This document shows, in pieces, positions 30,368-39,718 of a stretch of 64,000 nucleotides of DNA. Every line of letters begins with the position of its first letter. Position 1 is the first letter of the stretch. This DNA comes from Thermoproteota archaeon (GTDB lineage Archaea; Thermoproteota; Nitrososphaeria; Nitrososphaerales; Nitrososphaeraceae). The stretch covers positions 20,086-84,085 of the forward strand of contig JBKPGB010000078.1 of assembly GCA_046729135.1 (NCBI GenBank), in the 5' to 3' direction. The translations under genes were made by a program, and so were the position numbers. Below the pieces are notes generated by a model. The model did no database searches and had not been told where the DNA came from. It was given only the letters and a program-made list of their open reading frames with translations.

Positions 30368-31360
30368 TCACTTTGTACCAGGTGTAACGTAAAAATTGTT
30401 AATATACATCTCAGAAATCTGTTGCATTTCATCTCCATCTAGATATTTTCCATCTGATATCCGAGAAAATTTATCAATCTCCTCCAAACTTATCATTGTC
30501 GGCAACACGACCGATATTTGCTCATGAGATAGTATGAACTTAATCGCAAGCTCAGTAATATCCCACCCTTTTTTGTCGGAAATTGTCTTCATGTTTTCCA
30601 CTTTTTTTAGCGCCTCATATATCCATTCCTTCTTTCTCACACTCCTATGATCATTCTTGTCAAATATGGTGTTCTCATTGACTTTACCAGTTAATACTCC
30701 TGATGCGTCAGGGACCCTTGCCATGATACCAACATTTTTCTCTTCACCTGCCTTTAGTAGTTCATTACCCGGGTCTTGTTCCAAAATATTATAAACCGTC
30801 TGCAGGCATGTAATATTATGTTCTCTGATTGCACGTAGGCCTTCTTCTTTCCATCCGATGGCTGGACCCAACGCGACTCCGTGACTTTTAATCTTTCCTT
30901 TGGTAACGAGTATATCCAACGCATTAAATAATTCTTTATTTGTGATGACCTGCATTTTTGGGTTGTGAAGGCTATATACATCAATATAATCTGTCTGAAG
31001 TCTATCCAAACTTTGTCCTAATGCATATTGCAGATACTCAATGTTATGTTTCTGAGGTAACTCATTGTGCCCTACTTGTTCAGCATTGTACATGTCATAT
31101 CCCCATTTTGTTGAATAAACTATTTCATCTCTCATGCCTTTGAATGCTATCCCTATTAACTTCTCACTTTTTCCTTTCCCGTAAATGTCTCCAGTATCAT
31201 AGAAATTGATACCTACGTCATAAGCTCTTTTTAACATTCTAATTGCTTCATCATCTTCTATTTTCTTACCCCACCAATCCAAACCAATGCTCCATGCTCC
31301 AAACCCAATCTCACTTACTTTAATGTCACTTTTGCCAAGTCGTCTGTATCTCAATTCCAA
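30368..31360 (-). CDS. Aldo/keto reductase
   Basis: LGKSDIKVSEIGFG.W, FYDTGDIYG, YSTKWG, LQTDYID.Y.LH. Confidence 0.93.
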   Translation of the reverse strand: MELRYRRLGKSDIKVSEIGFGAWSIGLDWWGKKIEDDEAIRMLKRAYDVGINFYDTGDIYGKGKSEKLIGIAFKGMRDEIVYSTKWGYDMYNAEQVGHNELPQKHNIEYLQYALGQSLDRLQTDYIDVYSLHNPKMQVITNKELFNALDILVTKGKIKSHGVALGPAIGWKEEGLRAIREHNITCLQTVYNILEQDPGNELLKAGEEKNVGIMARVPDASGVLTGKVNENTIFDKNDHRSVRKKEWIYEALKKVENMKTISDKKGWDITELAIKFILSHEQISVVLPTMISLEEIDKFSRISDGKYLDGDEMQQISEMYINNFYVTPGTK

Positions 31361-31953
31361 ATCTCCTTAAACTTATCATAAATTTTTTGAAAATCACCAT
31401 CTTTAATAACTGGTTCACATTGATCAAGTAATTCGTCAATGCTATCATATAAATTCCCGTCCTTCTTAGTCAGCTCAATATCTATCCATGACTTACATCC
31501 AGACCAATTTGGATTTACACTTATTGAAATAGGTTCAGGCAGTTTGTAAACTCTCAATAGAAGGGCACTCACTGGTTTTTTTGGATTGTACCTCATTCTC
31601 ATGTTAACGTATTTTTCATTCCATATATGATACTTCTCTAACTTGGATAATTTCGTTTGATCATGGAACTCCTGCATTGCCTCAATTCTTGCTAAACTCC
31701 TTATGATATTGGATTTGTCTTGGACAACTGATTCATTTTCTTGGAAAAATGAATCGAATTCTTGTAAATAATTTGGTCGCAAATATTCTTCTGATTGGTG
31801 TTCTAGTGTGGGATACAAGAGGAAAATTTTTTGACTAATCTCAAAACCCTTCTTGTATTCTAATATCCCACCCTTTCGTAGCAATATTGATTGTTTGGCT
31901 TCCTCCAAGGCTCTACAAACAATAGACCATTCCTTCAGGGCTAACATAGTCAT
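31351..31953 (-). CDS. DUF1802 family protein
   Basis: ALKEW..VC.AL..A.Q..LLRKGGI.E, FLLYPT.EHQ, GCKSWI. Confidence 0.92.
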   Translation of the reverse strand: MTMLALKEWSIVCRALEEAKQSILLRKGGILEYKKGFEISQKIFLLYPTLEHQSEEYLRPNYLQEFDSFFQENESVVQDKSNIIRSLARIEAMQEFHDQTKLSKLEKYHIWNEKYVNMRMRYNPKKPVSALLLRVYKLPEPISISVNPNWSGCKSWIDIELTKKDGNLYDSIDELLDQCEPVIKDGDFQKIYDKFKEIWN

Positions 31954-32678
31954 CCTAAACTCTTAATTATATCAAAAATTTTTTTATAAACACAAACTAT
32001 CATAGGTGTATCTCTCACAACATATCTGTTTACCTGCGTTTCACGAAGTTTCATGATCAAGTCTTGAAAATCCATCAAATTGTCCGTCTCAAAAGCCAAC
32101 ATAAAATCTTGATCTCCCATACCAAAAGAATAAGAAGTATTCAATCTTATCTGTGGAAATTTCTTACCAACATTAATGTGCTCTTTCATCATTTCACTTC
32201 TTTTTGCAAATGGAAGAAGATACCATTCTCTTGACTTTACAAATGGATAAACGATATTGTATTTTAAAGGTTTGTCATCTTCCATGAAACTTGGAGTAAT
32301 TTTATTCGAATAAATTGATGGACGTGATGCCGACAAGTAAACTTCAGATGTGTCAATGTATTTTCCAAGTACAGTTGTGTAAACCTTTGAACTTAGCACT
32401 TGAATTTTTTCTACAGAGTCAGAAATGCTCCATAACATAAAGTCAGATTCCTTTCTCATACCAATTGTCGAATATGTCATCACCTTCATCTTTGTATTGG
32501 CAATATCTATTAGTGATGAAAACTCCTTAGCAGCTTCATCCTTTCCTATATCATTCAACCATCTCCATTTAGGATCTACTTTATAGAAGGAAAAATTGAG
32601 ATATAAAGTAGGTAAGTTAGTATCATCTTTTTTATCCTTAATCTCCTTTTGATTAATTTTTGATTTATCAAAACTCAT
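31950..32678 (-). CDS. Chlorite dismutase-like / coproheme decarboxylase (ChdC)-like protein
   Basis: VYPFVK.REWY.LP...R..MM.EH...G and SFG..DQDF..AFE motifs. Confidence 0.88.
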   Translation of the reverse strand: MSFDKSKINQKEIKDKKDDTNLPTLYLNFSFYKVDPKWRWLNDIGKDEAAKEFSSLIDIANTKMKVMTYSTIGMRKESDFMLWSISDSVEKIQVLSSKVYTTVLGKYIDTSEVYLSASRPSIYSNKITPSFMEDDKPLKYNIVYPFVKSREWYLLPFAKRSEMMKEHINVGKKFPQIRLNTSYSFGMGDQDFMLAFETDNLMDFQDLIMKLRETQVNRYVVRDTPMIVCVYKKIFDIIKSLG

Positions 32679-34028: not shown

Positions 34029-34577
34029 ATGGCAAAAACATTGTCGAGTCAAACACTAAAAAAAAATGATAATGCTCCCTCATTCAGATTAATGGGAACA
34101 GATAACAAATTCTATTCCCTTGAGGATTTCAAAAGTAAGTGCCTGTTGATAGTTTTTATTTGCAATCATTGTCCTTACGTTAAAGCTCGTATAGGTGATT
34201 TAGTTACTCTTCAGAGAAACTTTCCAAAGTCAGAATTACAAATTGTCGGGATAAATAGTAATGACCCATCTTATCAGGATGAAGGCTTTGAGAACATGAT
34301 CAAATTTTTCAAAGAAAATAACTTGAACTTTCCATACGTTATCGATGATGCACAACAAATTGCAAGATCATATGGAGCTGTCTGTACACCAGATCCATTT
34401 TTGTTTGATCAAAACAGAAGGCTTGTGTTTCATGGAAAAATAAATGATGCAATGGAACCAGAGATGACTCCACAAGTGAATGTTATGGAAAATAATATCA
34501 GAAAAATATTGAACGGAGAAATAATAGAAAAAGATTTTGATCCATCTATCGGCTGTTCAATTAAGTGGAAATCGTAA
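34029..34577 (+). CDS. Thioredoxin-like AhpC/TSA (redoxin) family protein
   Basis: FICNHCPYVK, D..Q.IARSYGAVCTPD.FLFD, SIGCSIKWK. Confidence 0.93.
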   Translation: MAKTLSSQTLKKNDNAPSFRLMGTDNKFYSLEDFKSKCLLIVFICNHCPYVKARIGDLVTLQRNFPKSELQIVGINSNDPSYQDEGFENMIKFFKENNLNFPYVIDDAQQIARSYGAVCTPDPFLFDQNRRLVFHGKINDAMEPEMTPQVNVMENNIRKILNGEIIEKDFDPSIGCSIKWKS

Positions 34578-34582
34578 ATTAT

Positions 34583-36448
34583 TTAACCGTACCTGTAGAT
34601 GATTCCTTTTTCACCTTTTGGATGTCTCCATCTAGTTCCAATAGAACAAGTCCCACATTCGACGCAACCTTCATGTTGTAGCACTACATCTTTTCCTTCA
34701 AGACTATAGCACTTGGTAGGACATAGTAGAATTAGTTTTTTCATGAATTCACTTCTTTTATCCTCCACAGTGATATGTGATTCGGTATCATCATTGTATT
34801 GCAATTTAGCAATTCTTTCTGATAAAGTCGGAATTACTGGTGCGTACGAAGAATTGACAATACTTCCTAGTCTGTTTGCCAAAAGGATTGGCACCTGAAC
34901 ATATGTCTTTTCTGATTCTATAATTGGTAAAACTTTATCATATCCCAAAAAATTTACCAGTCGAAGGGCAATTCCCCTCAATCTTTTATTTTTCATAAGA
35001 CTAAGACCAAAACCAGATAAAGGATCAAGAGAATCCATGGAAATGTTTCTTGCTACGTTAAGAAACAAAGTTATATAGTCTTCATCGATTCTATTCATTT
35101 CTCTGGTATATGGACTCTCATTAATAAGGGATTCATAGTAATTTCCCATGTAACCTGAATCAAAATTATTTTTTTCTATAGATCGCGAAATTGCAATAGA
35201 GGCCCTTACTGCATCATCGATACCAACATTGAGTCCTTCAATTTTTGGACCGATGAATATTCCACGACCAGCAGCATCTCCGATAAATAAAATATTTTTA
35301 TAATAGGGCTTTTTCATCATGCATCTTTTACCATCAGGGATTAGCTTTGCGCTATATTCAAGCTCTACATAATTATTAACAAATTGTACCCCATACTTTT
35401 CAATTAGGTCTTTTTTAATATTATCAATTTTTGATTTAATATCTTCTATATTTCTGAACTTTCCAGACTCTACCAATTCTACATCATTTTTGGAAAAATA
35501 TTTGTATCTTAATTCATCGTATGTTTTTATTAGTTTACTAAGGCTAAGCTGCATTTTGAGTTGTTCTTCTTTTGAAAGATCATTGTTATCCTTTCTTAAT
35601 GGGACTTCATCTTTAATATATTCACTAATTAGAGGATTTTTGATTAATTCATCTATGAGCTGTGCTGGAGTAACCGGATTTGAGAGAAGCGAATCATAGT
35701 GATAGACCGCTCCAAGTGATAATGTTTGGCGATTTGTATAAAGAAATCCACCACCAATATGATTCAACGTGATATCACCTGCAAAAAGATGCGCTGAACC
35801 TTCTGAAGAATTCAGATGAAACCTTTCTTCAATAATATTTTCAGGTAATTTTATGATGACTTTAACACCAAAGTAAACTTCTTCTGGTTTGAATTTCTCC
35901 CTAGCTGCCGTAGTTTCGGCAACTTCTGAATTTACTCCGTCAGCAGCAATTATTGAATTTACTTGGAATTCTTCTAATTCATTCGTCCTTATAATTGTCT
36001 TGTCGCCCATCCACTGAATATCAGAAACGTGGACTCCAGTGATAATTCCACCACCTTGTTTTTCAGCTGACTCAGAAGCTCGCTCTGCAAGCCAAGGGTT
36101 TAATTTATTTAAAAGAACGGAGAACCCAAAATTTGTTTTGTATTCATGAAGTGGAGTGAGATCCATTGTAAAAATTTTATTCTTGGAAGTAGCGTGCAGT
36201 AAATACTTCTTTATTAACCTCTCTACTGGTGCGTTGGACACAAAATCTGCACCAAAAACATCCTCAACGTTGTATATCCTTCCATGAGGGTCTTGTTTAG
36301 AATACAAAATACCACCAGAGACATTTTTGGTGCCTATCCGATTACCTGCTTCAATTAATATCGCGCTTCTATTAAGATCAGATAATTTTTTTAATGCTGA
36401 TAGTCCAGCTGACCCGCCCCCAATTATCGCCACATCATATTCTTCCAA
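34583..36448 (-). CDS. fixC: FixC/EtfC-type FAD oxidoreductase fused to FixX/EtfX ferredoxin
   Basis: IIGGGSAG, GTKNVSGG, AADGVNS, GDAAG; C-terminal CPTKCY...GCVECGTC...WRHPKG.KG..Y.YG FixX signature. Confidence 0.88.
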   Translation of the reverse strand: MEEYDVAIIGGGSAGLSALKKLSDLNRSAILIEAGNRIGTKNVSGGILYSKQDPHGRIYNVEDVFGADFVSNAPVERLIKKYLLHATSKNKIFTMDLTPLHEYKTNFGFSVLLNKLNPWLAERASESAEKQGGGIITGVHVSDIQWMGDKTIIRTNELEEFQVNSIIAADGVNSEVAETTAAREKFKPEEVYFGVKVIIKLPENIIEERFHLNSSEGSAHLFAGDITLNHIGGGFLYTNRQTLSLGAVYHYDSLLSNPVTPAQLIDELIKNPLISEYIKDEVPLRKDNNDLSKEEQLKMQLSLSKLIKTYDELRYKYFSKNDVELVESGKFRNIEDIKSKIDNIKKDLIEKYGVQFVNNYVELEYSAKLIPDGKRCMMKKPYYKNILFIGDAAGRGIFIGPKIEGLNVGIDDAVRASIAISRSIEKNNFDSGYMGNYYESLINESPYTREMNRIDEDYITLFLNVARNISMDSLDPLSGFGLSLMKNKRLRGIALRLVNFLGYDKVLPIIESEKTYVQVPILLANRLGSIVNSSYAPVIPTLSERIAKLQYNDDTESHITVEDKRSEFMKKLILLCPTKCYSLEGKDVVLQHEGCVECGTCSIGTRWRHPKGEKGIIYRYG

Positions 36449-36450
36449 GT

Positions 36451-37674
36451 CTATTGACTCCGTATAGTTATAGATGACATTTGCTTTTTTATCTGGTCAA
36501 TCAGTATCGGAATAACCTGTTCCATTCTTCCTTTTATAAAAATATCCGATTCGTCTACAATGGGAGATTTTTCATCAGTATTTATGGAGATAACCATTTC
36601 AGAATCTTTCATTCCAGCAACATGTTGTATGGCTCCGCTTAATCCCACAGCTACATAAAGAGTTGGTGTAACGTTGCTCCCACTAGTGCCAATGACCCTA
36701 TCTGGAATCATATATTTTGAATCCAGATTCTGACTCAATTGATATGGTTTTTTTGATAATGGTAATGTTATTCCTATTTCTGCATCAAGTAGTTCTGCGA
36801 ATTCTTCAACTAGTTTGATATTTTGTTCCGGATTATCTTTAATTCCACGTCCAAAGCTCACTACTATCTTGCAAGTTTCGTAATCGATTGTTCTCTCAAT
36901 CACCCTTCTACTCAATATCTTAATTTTTGGATCTTGGTCTATTATAGGGGAATATTCTACAATTGTCCCTTTCCTTAGATTATCCCTTTCTATTGGCTTA
37001 AATGCGCCTGGTATTATGCTGCATCCCTGTGGATGATATTCCCTAAGAATTTCTGGGTTTTTGTTATCTAGACATAGTATTGTTGTCCATAAAAAACCAG
37101 AAAAATCTGGACGATACATTTCTAGAATTTTTTTGTATTTCACAGACTGGCCTTTTGTTTTGTGCTCATGTCTAATATCGAGATCACTTATGACTAGCTT
37201 ATTTATATCAGATGCTAAACCTGAATCAAGCTCTGCCAGTACCGTAGAAGACAAGTGTCTCCCAATATTGTCCGCAGCAAAGAACATGTATCTTGGTTTT
37301 ACAAATGTGTTTTTGTATTCAGGCGATATTTCCTTCAAGATTTCCGCATCTTTTGCAATCTGAACTATTACTCTAGTATCGATATCATTTCGAGGATATC
37401 TTAGTTCCTCATGATTAGCATATATTACTGAATCTGCTCCATATGTTACTAATTCATCACATAATCTTCTAACATTACTACCAAGTAATACTGCTACGAC
37501 CTTTTCTGATGAATTGTATTTTTGATTAAAATCATCCATCAACCTTCTCGCTTCGCCTAGCATTTCCAAACTTACAGGCACTACCTGGCCTTCAAAATGC
37601 TCGATTATTACATAAATATGTCTATATTTTTCATCGGTGTCTGATCTATTTTCTCGACCTAATGATTTTGACAT
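36451..37674 (-). CDS. fixB: Electron transfer flavoprotein subunit alpha
   Basis: VSLEMLGEAR.L, VSFGRG, LYVAVGLSGAIQHVAGM, SINTD..SPI...SD. Confidence 0.92.
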   Translation of the reverse strand: MSKSLGRENRSDTDEKYRHIYVIIEHFEGQVVPVSLEMLGEARRLMDDFNQKYNSSEKVVAVLLGSNVRRLCDELVTYGADSVIYANHEELRYPRNDIDTRVIVQIAKDAEILKEISPEYKNTFVKPRYMFFAADNIGRHLSSTVLAELDSGLASDINKLVISDLDIRHEHKTKGQSVKYKKILEMYRPDFSGFLWTTILCLDNKNPEILREYHPQGCSIIPGAFKPIERDNLRKGTIVEYSPIIDQDPKIKILSRRVIERTIDYETCKIVVSFGRGIKDNPEQNIKLVEEFAELLDAEIGITLPLSKKPYQLSQNLDSKYMIPDRVIGTSGSNVTPTLYVAVGLSGAIQHVAGMKDSEMVISINTDEKSPIVDESDIFIKGRMEQVIPILIDQIKKQMSSITIRSQ

Positions 37675-37677
37675 TTT

Positions 37678-38547
37678 TTACTTGCCTCTTAGGATTTGGA
37701 TTATTTTTGTTGTTATTGGTGTTAAATTATTTGGATTAGTTGGATCTATGAACTCTGTTTTACGGTTTGTTTTTGCCCTAGGAATTCTTTCTACTCTATA
37801 TACTATAGTTGGAGAACCCGGCAGTCCTACGAGTTTCGGGTCTAGATTTAATTTTTTACTATCAAATATTCTTAAAATATGAGTATACTCTTCTGAATGT
37901 TTTCTCCCTTCTTTGCTAAACTTGTTTGATGTTAATCTTTGCGATACAGTATTGAAAATAGATCTATAAGAAGGATCAATAGTTATAAAGACGGGTAGTG
38001 GAGATTCTATTTCTTCAATAATTGTATCCATTCCTTGAAGAGAAATCAATCTTTTTGCAATTACCACTTTTCTCCCTAAATCAATATCAAAATCAATGAC
38101 ATTACCAAGAAAAGTATATCCCAACTTCCATGCGGTCTGTGGACCTGTCTGTCCTGTCTCCCCATCGGACGCTCGATGTCCAGAAAAGACGATATCAATC
38201 TTATTACCTCCAAACATATTTTCTACTCCGTTCCTGAGTACTTCTGCAGTTGCAAGGGTATCTGCACCTGCAAACAGTCTATCACTGTATAAATTGAGTT
38301 CTTCAGCATCAGTCAACACTTGAGCCTGCTTGAGGGCAGATTCTGCAATGGGTGGGCCCATTGTACCGATAGAAATATGTGCGCTGTATTTCACCTTGCA
38401 GTAAAATGCAGCATTACATGCTATTGCACTGTGTGGACCCAAAATATTTTTTGTTTCAGCCCTATTTAGTGTTCCATCTGAATTATAACTTACATTACCT
38501 TCAGAAAAATCAGGTTCTAGTTTTATAATAACACCAACATTTAACAA
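37678..38547 (-). CDS. fixA: Electron transfer flavoprotein subunit beta
   Basis: GTLNR, TMGPP.A, SDR.FAGADTLATA..L, G.RASDGETGQTGP, GLPGSPT.V. Confidence 0.92.
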   Translation of the reverse strand: MLNVGVIIKLEPDFSEGNVSYNSDGTLNRAETKNILGPHSAIACNAAFYCKVKYSAHISIGTMGPPIAESALKQAQVLTDAEELNLYSDRLFAGADTLATAEVLRNGVENMFGGNKIDIVFSGHRASDGETGQTGPQTAWKLGYTFLGNVIDFDIDLGRKVVIAKRLISLQGMDTIIEEIESPLPVFITIDPSYRSIFNTVSQRLTSNKFSKEGRKHSEEYTHILRIFDSKKLNLDPKLVGLPGSPTIVYRVERIPRAKTNRKTEFIDPTNPNNLTPITTKIIQILRGK

Positions 38548-38749: not shown

Positions 38750-39718
38750 ATGGTAGACCTGGTTTATGGACGCGGCATAACCGATCTAATACGTGAATTT
38801 CCTTTTTATTTAACTTTTTTTCGTAACATTATTGATATCAAATTATTTCATAAGAAAAGGACATTGTATGGTTCGGCAGACATAATCAATGTATGCAACC
38901 TACATTGTTCTCATTGTTATTGGTGGCTTAATCGGGAAGATGAAAATAATGAGCTCTCTCCAGAGGTTTGGAGATCGATAATAAGGAATACCTTCAAGAA
39001 ACAACATCTTCTTGGTGTAACGTTGGTGGGTGGCGAGCCAACCATGCGGCCCGAAGTTATTGATGTTTTCTGCCAAGAAATGCCTGGCAAGGTTTGTGTA
39101 GTAACAAACGGAACTTTTCCATTAAAACGGTTCGAGAATCTATATTTTTACTGGATATCACTAGACGGGACCGAAAAGGTACATGATAGTATAAGAGGTC
39201 AAGGTTCATATCAAAAGACGCGTAATACCATTTTGGAGTATATTTCCGGACCCCCACGAAAAGGAAAGCCAGTTTGGAAAGATATCTGGATAACAATGAC
39301 TATTAATTCTTTGAATTATCATACAGTCACGAATTTAGCCGAAGAATGGAAGGATAAAATCAATAAGATTGGCTTTCAGTTTCATACTCCATTCGTAAAA
39401 GGTGATCCATTATGGTTACCATTTGGAGAAACAAGAAGTGAAGTAGTAGATCGTATAATCTCCCTAAGGAAAAAATATCCAAATTATATCGTAAACACTG
39501 AGAAACAAATTGCATTAATGAAAGGAAACTGGGGAGGCAATGGAACGATACCAATCCAGTGTCCTTCTTGGGCAATACTTTCTTTGGATCATAAGGGCAG
39601 GATCAAGCAACCATGTTGTATTGGAAGTTCTGACGCAAAAGGACTAAAACCAATTTGCGAACAATGTGGACTTGGATGTTATTCCGTACTTGTTGCCCAG
39701 GGCATTAAGGGATTCTGA
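38750..39718 (+). CDS. Radical SAM protein with C-terminal Cys-rich (SPASM/twitch-like) region
   Basis: CNLHCSHC (CxxxCxxC), VGGEP, VVTNGT, ISLDG...HD.IRG; further Cys in CPSW...PCC...CEQCGLGC. Confidence 0.9.
   Translation: MVDLVYGRGITDLIREFPFYLTFFRNIIDIKLFHKKRTLYGSADIINVCNLHCSHCYWWLNREDENNELSPEVWRSIIRNTFKKQHLLGVTLVGGEPTMRPEVIDVFCQEMPGKVCVVTNGTFPLKRFENLYFYWISLDGTEKVHDSIRGQGSYQKTRNTILEYISGPPRKGKPVWKDIWITMTINSLNYHTVTNLAEEWKDKINKIGFQFHTPFVKGDPLWLPFGETRSEVVDRIISLRKKYPNYIVNTEKQIALMKGNWGGNGTIPIQCPSWAILSLDHKGRIKQPCCIGSSDAKGLKPICEQCGLGCYSVLVAQGIKGF

Follow-up and report, generated by a model that had tools for sequence, protein, structure and literature searches.

A conserved EtfAB-FixCX operon with a bifurcating-type electron transfer flavoprotein in ammonia-oxidising archaea

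Background

The closest described counterparts of the locus are the EtfABCX complexes of Thermotoga maritima (7KOE) and Pyrobaculum aerophilum, in which a two-FAD electron transfer flavoprotein (ETF), a FixC quinone reductase and a ferredoxin-like X protein occur with no link to nitrogen fixation, and the nif-linked FixABCX systems of A. vinelandii and rhizobia, which have a group 2 ETF. The motifs GxxSPTxV and RxGV are conserved in most group 2 small subunits, and T. maritima variants at these positions partly retain bifurcation. The Arg of the RPxFGG motif, which is present outside group 2 too, adjoins the bifurcating flavin (T. maritima R140; R. palustris R165, in RPTF), and the T94,97A variant of the R. 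palustris ETF carries one FAD. A further Arg stabilises the semiquinone of the electron-transfer (ET) flavin (human alphaR249, M. methylotrophus R237, R. palustris R273). In R. palustris, the R273A and R273H exchanges bring E(OX/ASQ) down by 60-76 mV and let the ET flavin accept two electrons, and in the view of the authors quinone and ferredoxin reduction could thereby become uncoupled; R273K behaves like the wild type. In A. vinelandii FixX, cluster II, with an adjacent Tyr, is the only cluster on the path from ET-FAD to QR-FAD. The same four modules are found in E. coli FixABCX/YdiQRST, where FixX has just 4-5 Cys, and porcine ETF-QO (2GMH) holds FAD, a [4Fe-4S] domain and a quinone site in one chain.

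Thaumarchaeal fixABCX clusters have been in print since 2002/2012 (soil fosmids 29i4 and 02j05, N. viennensis, N. gargensis and Atacama MAGs), so the presence of the operon is not new; these papers noted the cluster and left its function open. Homologues were not found in marine Thaumarchaeota by Bartossek et al. 2012, and a survey of bifurcating enzymes recorded homologues in only three of the four archaeal phyla of its database, Thaumarchaeota not being among those named nor mentioned anywhere in its text. The published clusters are the same three-gene cluster as described here, and uvrABC accompanies it on fosmid 02j05 as it does in the 64,000-nt window (the whole stretch of DNA analysed). 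New here are the bifurcating-type placement, the distribution over four families, the age of the C-X fusion, an insert in FixC, a one-cluster FixX, a Leu at the ET site and independence from acyl-CoA dehydrogenase. Ammonia-oxidising archaea (AOA) need a route from a high-potential donor to NAD(P)H and reduced ferredoxin with a complex I that lacks the NADH module, and a conserved enzyme coupling NADH, quinone and ferredoxin could, in terrestrial lineages at least, provide part of that route, a proposal both concrete and open to test.

Operon structure and genomic context

The operon consists of three minus-strand ORFs separated by gaps of 3 and 2 nt, encoding in order EtfB/FixA, EtfA/FixB and a FixC-FixX fusion (Table 1). 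Pfam and NCBIfam models identified the first ORF as ETF, the second as ETF plus ETF_alpha, and the third as FixC-like at residues 4-280 and over a second stretch and FixX-like at 552-621. The tight packing and the C-terminal fusion of FixX to FixC were thus as first read from the sequence. The etfB start codon is preceded, at a distance of ~25-30 nt, by a candidate TATA-like element.

Table 1. Coordinates of the operon and its features in the window
Feature	Position	Strand	Details
etfB/fixA, small ETF subunit	37678..38547	-	289 aa, TTG start; PF01012 E 4e-21
etfA/fixB, large ETF subunit	36451..37674	-	407 aa; PF01012 + PF00766
fixCX, FixC quinone-reductase flavoprotein + FixX-like ferredoxin domain	34583..36448	-	621 aa, TTG start
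Candidate TATA-like element ATTATATTAA	38571..38580	-	Inferred by sequence reading
Putative second-FAD (Bf-FAD) motifs TMGPP, AGADTLAT (T97/T100), SDGETGQTGP; EtfB 62-136	38140..38364	-	Alignment
GLPGSPTIV, group-2 GxxSPTxV loop; EtfB 241-249	37801..37827	-	GSPTIV in 85/85 loci
RPDFSG with Bf-site Arg188 between two AOA-specific inserts; EtfA 159-214	37033..37200	-	Alignment
ET-flavin site, EtfA 302-332	36679..36771	-	phmmer, MAFFT, hhalign, AF2; 94-95 loci
AOA-specific charged insert, FixCX 279-361	35366..35614	-	Conserved, with invariant positions
FixX-like domain, FixCX 553-621	34586..34792	-	Five invariant Cys + Tyr581

The suspected ammonia oxidiser was identified as such by an archaeal amoA in the host genome, which has a single ETF pair, that of the operon. 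No acyl-CoA dehydrogenase is encoded within ~5 kb of the operon, as first noted from the sequence, but a full-length, single-copy gene with three ACAD domains is present on another contig (C209). Neither NuoF nor flavodoxin was found in the host genome, which does encode a 2-oxoacid:ferredoxin oxidoreductase along with small Fer4 proteins. The GC content of the operon does not deviate. It is also covered, gene junctions included, by contigs assembled from RNA in four studies (four libraries, soil or sediment; 92-99% identity), which is evidence of operon presence only.

The bifurcating-flavin site

Both subunits belong to the ETF superfamily, with PF01012 in each and PF00766 in the large one scoring 76.0, 53.3 and 76.3 bits (gathering cut-offs 26.7 and 27 bits). 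In phmmer searches of the PDB, EtfB matched bifurcating ETFs only (7KOE_A, 5OL2_B, 4KPU_B, 6FAH_B and 7QH2_B) and no canonical ETF. EtfA aligned over its full length to bifurcating ETFs only (E 1e-41 to 5e-29), its alignment to canonical ETFs being confined to the C-terminal domain.

In the alignment, the EtfB motifs at the putative second-FAD site recur in nif-linked FixA and in neither canonical ETFs nor E. coli FixA/YdiQ. They are kept in 68-72 AOA loci; both Thr of ADTLAT, equivalent to T94/T97 in R. palustris numbering, are kept in 72 of 72. The second-FAD loop reads DGET where group 2 has DGDT and AMP-type ETFs have DDD. The two motifs singled out in the original prediction, RASDGETGQTG (EtfB 125-135) and DRVIGTSG (EtfA 325-332), are both present and are kept in 70-95 AOA loci. 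Of the two small-subunit motifs of group 2, GxxSPTxV stands as GLPGSPTIV in 85 of 85 loci and RxGV reads R-A-E-T, only the Arg being retained, a point against the bifurcating reading. In EtfA, YRPDFSG, including Arg188, is invariant in 90 AOA loci and is flanked by AOA-specific inserts of ~20 aa (a predicted extended beta-hairpin) and ~10 aa; strands 159-168 and 177-190 have a pLDDT of 84-93 in the AF2 model (82.5 overall). Taken as a set, the Bf-FAD determinants (ADTLAT Thr, DGET, MGPP, GSPTIV and Arg188) persist in about 70-90 AOA loci.

The electron-transfer flavin site

At the ET-flavin site T-L-P replaces S-R-A/P, placing Leu304 in the Arg column; the invariant Ser307-Lys308 then begins a 9-12 aa insert, and DRVIGTSG follows instead of QVGQTG. 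The column holds Leu in 94 of 94 AOA loci, with Arg in none of them, and Arg in all non-AOA ETFs aligned here. Three of four alignments (MAFFT, phmmer against 7KOE_B and hhalign) put Leu304 in this column, and phmmer against 6FAH_A places Lys308 there instead.

The FixCX fusion protein

FixCX has an N-terminal GxGxxG Rossmann motif, a GDAAG motif and a FixC fold, and falls within FixC proteins in the FixC tree; the FixC model NF007542 scores 171 bits (E 3e-50), below the NCBI equivalog-style cut-off of 610. The AF2 model (pLDDT 87, pTM 0.89) found its best structure match (VIA) in T. maritima EtfC, 7KOE_C (Z 37.2, rmsd 2.2 A, 382 residues). In the sequence alignment, FixCX 3-278 pairs with 7KOE_C 4-274 and FixCX 362-452 with 281-368, leaving FixCX 279-361 unmatched, and hence an insert of ~83 residues, in agreement with the original estimate of a charged insertion of ~80-90 aa: K/R/D/E make up 40% of it and 24% of the rest of the protein. 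It is predicted to form a strand, a 25-residue helix, a short helix, a 19-residue helix and a strand (pLDDT 78-95). None of the non-AOA FixC proteins compared, fused or unfused, has it, and the predicted helical insert is on this comparison AOA-specific.

The FixX domain (553-621) aligns to T. maritima EtfX 15-92. Its invariant Cys (576, 580, 595, 598 and 601) are enough for one [4Fe-4S] cluster, and a 6-residue deletion takes out the last Cys of a two-cluster FixX; the T. maritima-type FixX from Nitrososphaeria outside the AOA contains nine Cys. The CP...CY...CxxCxxC set is kept, with C576, C595, C598, C601 and Y581 invariant. When aligned to rhizobial FixX and read together with what is described for A. 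vinelandii FixX, the single cluster is apparently the on-pathway one, cluster II.

Phylogeny and distribution

Maximum likelihood (ML) trees of the ETF subunits were built on a small reference set of 19-21 sequences (published set: 1,314). The AOA EtfA and EtfB each form a clade (100/100) that nests with nif-linked Bradyrhizobium and Sinorhizobium FixAB (95/94 for EtfA, 99/98 for EtfB), and E. coli FixAB/YdiQR and canonical ETFs fall apart from it in both trees. The E. coli proteins are presumably of the type known as ETF 'group 4'. The proposed placement of the AOA ETF with bifurcating-type FixAB is therefore upheld within the scope of this small reference set. In the FixC tree the AOA are likewise monophyletic (100/100), with sub-clades that follow families; the nearest relatives are fused FixCX forms, including one non-AOA Nitrososphaeria family, and the C-X fusion predates AOA.

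The distribution across AOA, which it had been suggested to map, covers four families with the same three-gene order. The operon is present in 70 of 77 sampled Nitrososphaeraceae, in all sampled genomes of two smaller families, f3 and f5 (10/10 and 4/4), and in about a fifth (45/224) of a further family (f2, probably Nitrosopumilaceae), whereas Bartossek et al. 2012 had found none in marine Thaumarchaeota. Since most marine AOA are without it, the operon cannot be the AOA core route to NADH or ferredoxin. Flanking genes differ between the families.

Comparison with described systems

For each of the three proteins the closest counterpart in sequence and in structure is that of T. maritima EtfABCX, and the modules correspond to those of T. 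maritima and P. aerophilum, again without a nitrogen-fixation link. Unlike in these, C and X form one chain, X has Cys for one cluster instead of two, C carries the 83-residue predicted helical insert and EtfA domain I two inserts, the ET-site Arg is a Leu, and RxGV is reduced to R only. With the A. vinelandii and rhizobial systems the AOA proteins share the EtfA/EtfB clade, the Bf-FAD motifs and the cluster II Cys set, but they have no nitrogenase context, are ~27-28% identical, bear the fusion and the inserts, and cannot fully ligate the off-pathway cluster I. The E. coli systems, with the same modules, belong to another ETF clade and lack the MGPP, ADTLAT, DGDT and GSPT motifs. Porcine ETF-QO resembles FixCX in layout and is a whole-length structural match (2GMH_A, Z 28.1, 440 residues, rmsd 2.9 A), yet FixCX has no PF05187 (Fer4_ETF_QO) match and no phmmer hit to 2GMH; because the AOA fusion arose within the FixC clade, the likeness in layout is convergent.

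Proposed function

Sequence and phylogeny support an ETF of the two-FAD, bifurcating type. The possibility that the complex serves an acyl-CoA dehydrogenase encoded elsewhere was checked in five single-contig, 99%-complete AOA genomes bearing the operon, none of which contains a PF00441 acyl-CoA dehydrogenase, and NADH is therefore the likely donor. Counts by genus also differ between the ACAD orthologue and the operon (9/84 and 0/84 in g14, 18/32 and 31/32 in g26, 9/15 and 2/15 in g2), the two being distributed independently. Given the two-FAD type and this independence, a role in NADH/quinone/ferredoxin coupling is the best reading. These two parts of the original proposal hold, bifurcation itself being suggested by the sequences; that EtfAB-FixCX is an AOA-specific bifurcating complex appears somewhat favoured.

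The complex would be membrane-associated and of the FixABCX/EtfABCX kind. EtfB and EtfA domain I would hold a second, NADH-reactive (bifurcating) FAD and EtfA domain II the ET-FAD, from which electrons would pass one per step to the single [4Fe-4S] of the fused FixX, the FixC FAD and the membrane quinone, the other electron of the bifurcating FAD going to a low-potential ferredoxin; in reverse, quinol and reduced ferredoxin would yield NADH. With a host complex I lacking the NADH-binding module, EtfAB-FixCX would connect three pools, those of NAD(H), ferredoxin and quinone. In this scheme the cofactors, NADH as donor, the coupling to ferredoxin, what the insert does and which way the reaction runs in vivo are inferred, whereas gene structure, family placement, the retained motifs, the distribution and the independence from acyl-CoA dehydrogenase come directly from the analysis.

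A more specific version is offered tentatively and is rather unlikely to hold in full: in soil and many other AOA, EtfAB-FixCX and the NuoEFG-less complex I may form a reversible quinol/ferredoxin/NAD(H) link, marked by a single on-pathway cluster, an additional helical module of a new kind and an ET site devoid of Arg, which in the reverse (confurcation) direction would make NADH from ammonia-derived quinol and reduced ferredoxin. If so, EtfAB-FixCX would be part of the path of AOA autotrophs to reductant, and the Arg-less site would amount to a natural experiment in gating a flavin semiquinone. In the enzymology of flavin bifurcation, the AOA complex can serve as a naturally occurring minimal variant, lacking the off-pathway FixX cluster of A. 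vinelandii and exchanging the ET-site Arg shown by mutagenesis to set the semiquinone potential.

Alternative explanations

By analogy with R. palustris R273A, which could uncouple the two reductions, the Arg-to-Leu change could count against bifurcation. The main rival, somewhat unlikely on balance, is accordingly a non-bifurcating NADH:quinone oxidoreductase with two FADs, in which, the ET-site Arg being lost, both electrons of NADH take the path through ET-FAD, [4Fe-4S] and FixC-FAD to quinone. Leu304 in all 94 loci, the lowered potential and two-electron reduction in R273A/R273H, the loss of the off-pathway FixX cluster and the lack of a detected NuoF in the host all fit such an enzyme; AOA without NuoEFG would gain simple NADH respiration, for example from storage polymers, and the finding would be an ordinary one. 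Against it, the invariant Lys308, four residues past Leu304 and in the Arg column in the 6FAH_A alignment, could supply the charge, R273K being like the wild type in R. palustris, and all Bf-site determinants are strongly conserved with the gating domain architecture intact. A conventional ETF and ETF-QO-like pair, which without NADH or bifurcation would relay electrons to quinone from some flavoprotein dehydrogenase whose gene lies elsewhere, could draw on the host acyl-CoA dehydrogenase on C209 and on the one-chain, one-FAD, one-cluster layout shared with 2GMH_A. It is improbable in view of the five complete genomes without PF00441, the separate distributions in g14, g26 and g2, EtfB motifs of FAD rather than AMP type, an EtfB phmmer search that reaches no canonical ETF, and the missing PF05187 match.

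FixC is a member of the geranylgeranyl (GG)-reductase superfamily, and a GGR-like structure, Ta0516, is the second-best structural match to FixCX (Z 29.5). That FixCX is an ETF-fed lipid reductase with its own ferredoxin domain is nonetheless scarcely credible: it scores 34-43 bits on TIGR02032 (cut-off 158.8), on which three other host genes reach 132-168 bits, and both its FixC subfamily score of 171 bits and its place in the FixC tree set it with FixC. As for origin, the original prediction envisaged horizontal acquisition, and a recently gained accessory cassette of the soil lineage would agree with the patchy occurrence in f2 and the varying flanking genes. Recent transfer is not borne out and is very unlikely, given the identical gene order in four families and near-complete presence in three, 100/100 support for AOA monophyly in each of the three protein trees, with sub-clades along family lines, and fused FixCX as nearest forms, some of them from non-AOA Nitrososphaeria. 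Inheritance of the operon looks vertical, and its GC content is ordinary.

Gene structure of the fix operon

The fix operon comprises three ORFs on the minus strand of the window (table), separated by spacers of 3 nt (etfB-etfA) and 2 nt (etfA-fixCX), in agreement with the original prediction of three close-packed genes with gaps of 2–3 nt; the motifs quoted there for FixA (RASDGETGQTG) and FixB (DRVIGTSG) were found in the ORF translations. FixCX was matched by NCBIfam FixC-like models at residues 4–280 and over a later stretch, and by a FixX-like model at 552–621. Alignment to the solved Thermotoga maritima EtfABCX paired residues 3–278 and 362–452 with EtfC 4–274 and 281–368, and residues 553–621 with EtfX 15–92. 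These alignments identify FixCX as a FixC-FixX fusion carrying an insert of ~83 residues (279–361), 40% charged vs 24% elsewhere in the protein. Both the predicted attachment of FixX to the FixC C-terminus and the predicted charged insert of 80–90 aa were confirmed, as was every other observed feature of the original prediction. The host genome (2.43 Mb, 95.6% complete) carries archaeal amoA and a single ETF pair. Its FixCX was 96% identical to the nearest named record among the matches listed, a soil 'Nitrososphaerales archaeon TH703'.

Coordinates of the fix operon genes, their surroundings and the acyl-CoA dehydrogenase (ACAD) gene of the host genome (window positions unless stated)
Feature	Coordinates	Strand	Description
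etfB	38547..37678	minus	ORF 289 aa, TTG start; Pfam ETF domain
etfA	37674..36451	minus	ORF 407 aa; Pfam ETF and ETF_alpha
fixCX	36448..34583	minus	ORF 621 aa, TTG start; NCBIfam FixC-like and FixX-like
AhpC/TSA peroxiredoxin	34029-34577	plus	convergent with fixCX, 5 nt from fixCX stop
radical SAM gene	38750-39718	plus	divergent from etfB over 202-nt spacer
chlorite-dismutase-family protein (242 aa), DUF1802 protein (200 aa), aldo/keto reductase (330 aa)	30368-32678	minus	gene ends overlap or abut
uvrA/uvrB-size genes	52343-57280		named by size; ~14 kb from fix operon
ACAD gene	host genome contig C209, L016:793-2061		422 aa, the genome's only one; adjoins class-III aminotransferase

Classification of the ETF

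In phmmer searches against the PDB, EtfB matched only five bifurcating ETFs (7KOE, 5OL2, 4KPU, 6FAH, 7QH2), and EtfA aligned over its full length only with these same five; matches of EtfA to the canonical human, Paracoccus and Methylophilus ETFs were limited to the C-terminal FAD domain. Structure was tried as a discriminator of bifurcating from canonical ETFs and gave no separation, the EtfA model scoring Z 27–29 vs bifurcating and 22–27 vs canonical proteins.

ETF subunits were placed by phylogeny, as had been proposed, against a small reference set of our own, made up of annotated nif-linked FixABCX of Bradyrhizobium and Sinorhizobium, the ACAD-linked Ilyobacter ETF, E. coli FixABCX and YdiQRST, canonical Novosphingobium and Fuscovulum ETFs, and haloarchaeal, Paenibacillus and non-AOA Nitrososphaeria ETFs (AOA, ammonia-oxidising archaea). 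'Group 1' and 'group 4', as applied to reference ETFs, are taken to follow the Garcia Costas 2017 classification. In the Ilyobacter polytropus plasmid pILYOP01, the etfB preceding the annotated etfA gives a reading frame of only 180 aa, is missing from the gene table used, and may be frameshifted. In maximum likelihood trees the AOA EtfA and EtfB each formed a 100/100 clade, nested in a larger one (95/94 for EtfA, 99/98 for EtfB) that also held nif-linked Fix proteins, the Ilyobacter ETF and sequences of two non-AOA Nitrososphaeria lineages; E. coli and canonical ETFs branched apart from those of AOA in both trees. Nif-linked Fix ETFs belong to group 2, the two-FAD, bifurcating type, in the cited literature.

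The pattern of motifs across the ETFs was consistent with the trees: TMGPP, AGADTLAT, (S/V)DGETGQTGP and GL(P/A)GSPTIV of AOA EtfB are common to Fix proteins and absent from canonical and E. coli ETFs. Rhodopseudomonas palustris numbering fits Bradyrhizobium FixAB exactly, with T94/T97 in ADTLAT and R165 in RPTF, and the equivalent of R165 in AOA EtfA is Arg188 in RPDFSG. The R. palustris T94,97A variant holds a single FAD (PMC8958531). Motifs of the site for the second (bifurcating) FAD were nearly invariant over 70–95 AOA loci, and judged by these residues the AOA ETF very probably binds a second FAD in place of AMP.

FixCX quinone reductase and its ferredoxin domain

The AF2 model of FixCX (pLDDT 87, pTM 0.89) had T. 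maritima EtfC as its best structural match (Z 37.2, rmsd 2.2 Å, 382 residues). The model also aligned with porcine ETF-QO along the entire chain, Fe-S domain included (Z 28.1, 440 residues), but FixCX does not belong to ETF-QO by sequence, and its ETF-QO-like layout is therefore convergent. FixCX is very probably not the geranylgeranyl (lipid) reductase, because separate geranylgeranyl reductases are present in the genome. The insert, modelled as a strand, a 25-residue helix, a short helix, a 19-residue helix and a strand, has positions invariant across AOA families.

The AOA FixX domain has five invariant Cys, a 6-residue deletion having removed the last Cys of the two-cluster FixX; by comparison, nine Cys occur in T. 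maritima-type FixX from non-AOA Nitrososphaeria, six in rhizobial FixX and four or five in E. coli FixX. In the 2026 structure from Azotobacter vinelandii, cluster II alone lies between the electron-transfer flavin (ET-FAD) and the FixC FAD, and one cysteine of that cluster is hydrogen-bonded to a Tyr; cluster I is off-pathway, has a very low potential and is without an assigned role (PMC13761266). We infer that CP...CY...CxxCxxC, which the AOA domain retains, corresponds to cluster II and its Tyr; the single cluster of AOA FixCX is presumably the on-pathway one.

Departures of the AOA ETF from other ETFs

Only the Arg of the group-2 RxGV motif is retained in AOA EtfB. Domain I of EtfA carries an insert of ~20 residues upstream of RPDFSG, modelled as an extended beta-hairpin (pLDDT 84–93), and a second of ~10 residues after it, and QVGQTG is replaced by RV(I/V)G(T/S)SG in AOA. 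The ET-flavin site is (S/T)-R-(A/P) in every non-AOA ETF of the set and (S/T)-L-P-x-S-K followed by a 9–12 residue insert in 94/94 AOA loci. Leu304 was placed in the Arg column by MAFFT, by phmmer against 7KOE_B and by profile-profile hhalign, whereas phmmer against 6FAH_A placed the invariant Lys308 there instead; the EtfA model, with a strand at 299–302 and a helix from 304, fits the former alignment.

Electron donor and function

The orthologue of the one ACAD in the host genome and the operon are distributed independently across AOA, and PF00441 had no match in five single-contig, 99%-complete AOA genomes carrying the operon; a fatty-acyl donor is therefore not the general partner, which leads to NADH as the economical reading of the donor. 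To our knowledge, every group-2 ETF characterised so far takes its electrons from NADH. The ACAD orthologue is patchy across AOA, occurring in 31/32, 10/24 and 0/84 genomes of genera g26, g13 and g14 and in 51/77 Nitrososphaeraceae.

A coupled NADH/quinone/ferredoxin enzyme is the reading to which we incline by a little over even chances. NuoF and flavodoxin were not found in the host genome, and a 2-oxoacid:ferredoxin oxidoreductase and small ferredoxin-like ORFs are present. The rival reading, an uncoupled NADH:quinone reductase, is improbable but deserves weight. E(OX/ASQ) of the ET flavin is raised by the Arg above it (R273 in R. palustris, alphaR249 in human ETF). In the R273A variant E(OX/ASQ) is 76 mV lower and the flavin can take up two electrons, which according to the authors might decouple the reduction of quinone from that of ferredoxin; R273K is wild-type-like (PMC8958531). 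Lys308 may therefore compensate for the lost Arg, the point on which the choice between the coupled enzyme and its rival chiefly turns. Other readings share the remaining probability. Contigs from four RNA libraries (four studies; soil and freshwater sediment) matched the operon at 92–99% identity and bridged both gene junctions, which is compatible with in situ expression of close relatives; they show presence rather than transcription, transcript level, strand or ends, and DNA carry-over is possible.

Distribution and origin

The mapping across AOA that had been proposed was done with the full-length fused protein on 400 sampled Nitrososphaeria genomes. FixCX was found in 70/77 genomes of AOA family f1 (Nitrososphaeraceae by the names of listed relatives), 45/224 of f2, 10/10 of f3 and 4/4 of f5, and the remaining Nitrososphaeria families gave only FixC-like matches of ~430 residues. 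Five unpublished genomes are counted in these tallies (G365 in f1; in f2, genus g26, G132, G231, G283 and G327); leaving them out gives 69/76 for f1 and 41/220 for f2 and affects none of the claims. In 185,579 species genomes a pattern scan gave 312 relatives; among the matches listed 80/80 were Nitrososphaerales, including Nitrosopolaris, Nitrososphaera, Nitrosotenuis and Nitrosopumilus sp. MAGs. The full architecture occurred in only two 50% clusters among 1.84 billion representatives.

Fused forms without the insert were 558 and 567 residues long, and a phylum-wide search for relatives of two such proteins (P0129 and P0188) gave only 38–44% relatives. Fused frames of 568–574 residues without the insert were present in the non-AOA Nitrososphaeria family f12 and in two other Thermoproteota families; other lineages have separate FixC and nine-Cys FixX. 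All fused forms made one clade in the FixC tree, the AOA (100/100) being joined by P0129 (100/99) and then by f12 and P0188 (94/90), and f12 was joined to AOA in the EtfB tree at 96/94, with a long-branch warning. Gene order etfB-etfA-fixCX was identical in six genomes of four families, with differing flanks. Recent horizontal acquisition, suggested earlier, is not supported by this single clade of fused forms and the shared gene order in four AOA families. Vertical descent within Nitrososphaeria is the simplest history, in which the fusion came first, the AOA stem then gained the insert and lost a cluster, and losses followed later, chiefly among marine lineages.

Two non-AOA loci had features of their own. 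The f12 locus L112 (genome G001) encodes a 568-aa fused FixCX lacking the AOA insert and with a long insert within the FixX domain. Its EtfB has an extra segment of ~18 residues just before DGET, and in its EtfA the loop that follows the GRG motif is longer. The f9 locus L110 (genome G383) has another gene order, with fixX-etfB-etfA and fixC on opposite strands, and its FixX is of the nine-Cys, two-cluster type.

Earlier reports and operon surroundings

A three-gene fixABCX cluster was reported from soil group I.1b thaumarchaea in fosmid 29i4 (2002), fosmid 02j05, N. viennensis and N. gargensis, its function being left open and homologues not being reported in marine Thaumarchaeota (PMC3379541). 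An Atacama preprint mentions thaumarchaeal fixABCX genes again, and in a survey of bifurcating enzymes three of four archaeal phyla had homologues and Thaumarchaeota go unmentioned (PMC6085437). Our literature searches found no paper that classifies the AOA ETF, calls the AOA fix cluster bifurcating, or describes the insert, the reduction to one cluster or the loss of the Arg. The FixABCX-type module is real, strongly conserved and already on record from soil AOA; the AOA-specific anatomy (the older C-X fusion, helical insert, single and presumably on-pathway cluster, EtfA inserts and Arg-less ET site) is not described in the literature found, and the group-2 placement, the occurrence in some genomes of f2 (probably Nitrosopumilaceae) and the independence from ACAD are also new.

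No conserved neighbour of the operon was common to different AOA families. The radical SAM gene was not adjacent to it in the other families examined. The peroxiredoxin-fixCX arrangement recurs in one complete genome of the same family (L018, G184) and not in other families. Soil fosmid 02j05 carries its fixABCX cluster together with uvrABC, as the window carries the fix operon with uvrA/uvrB-size genes.
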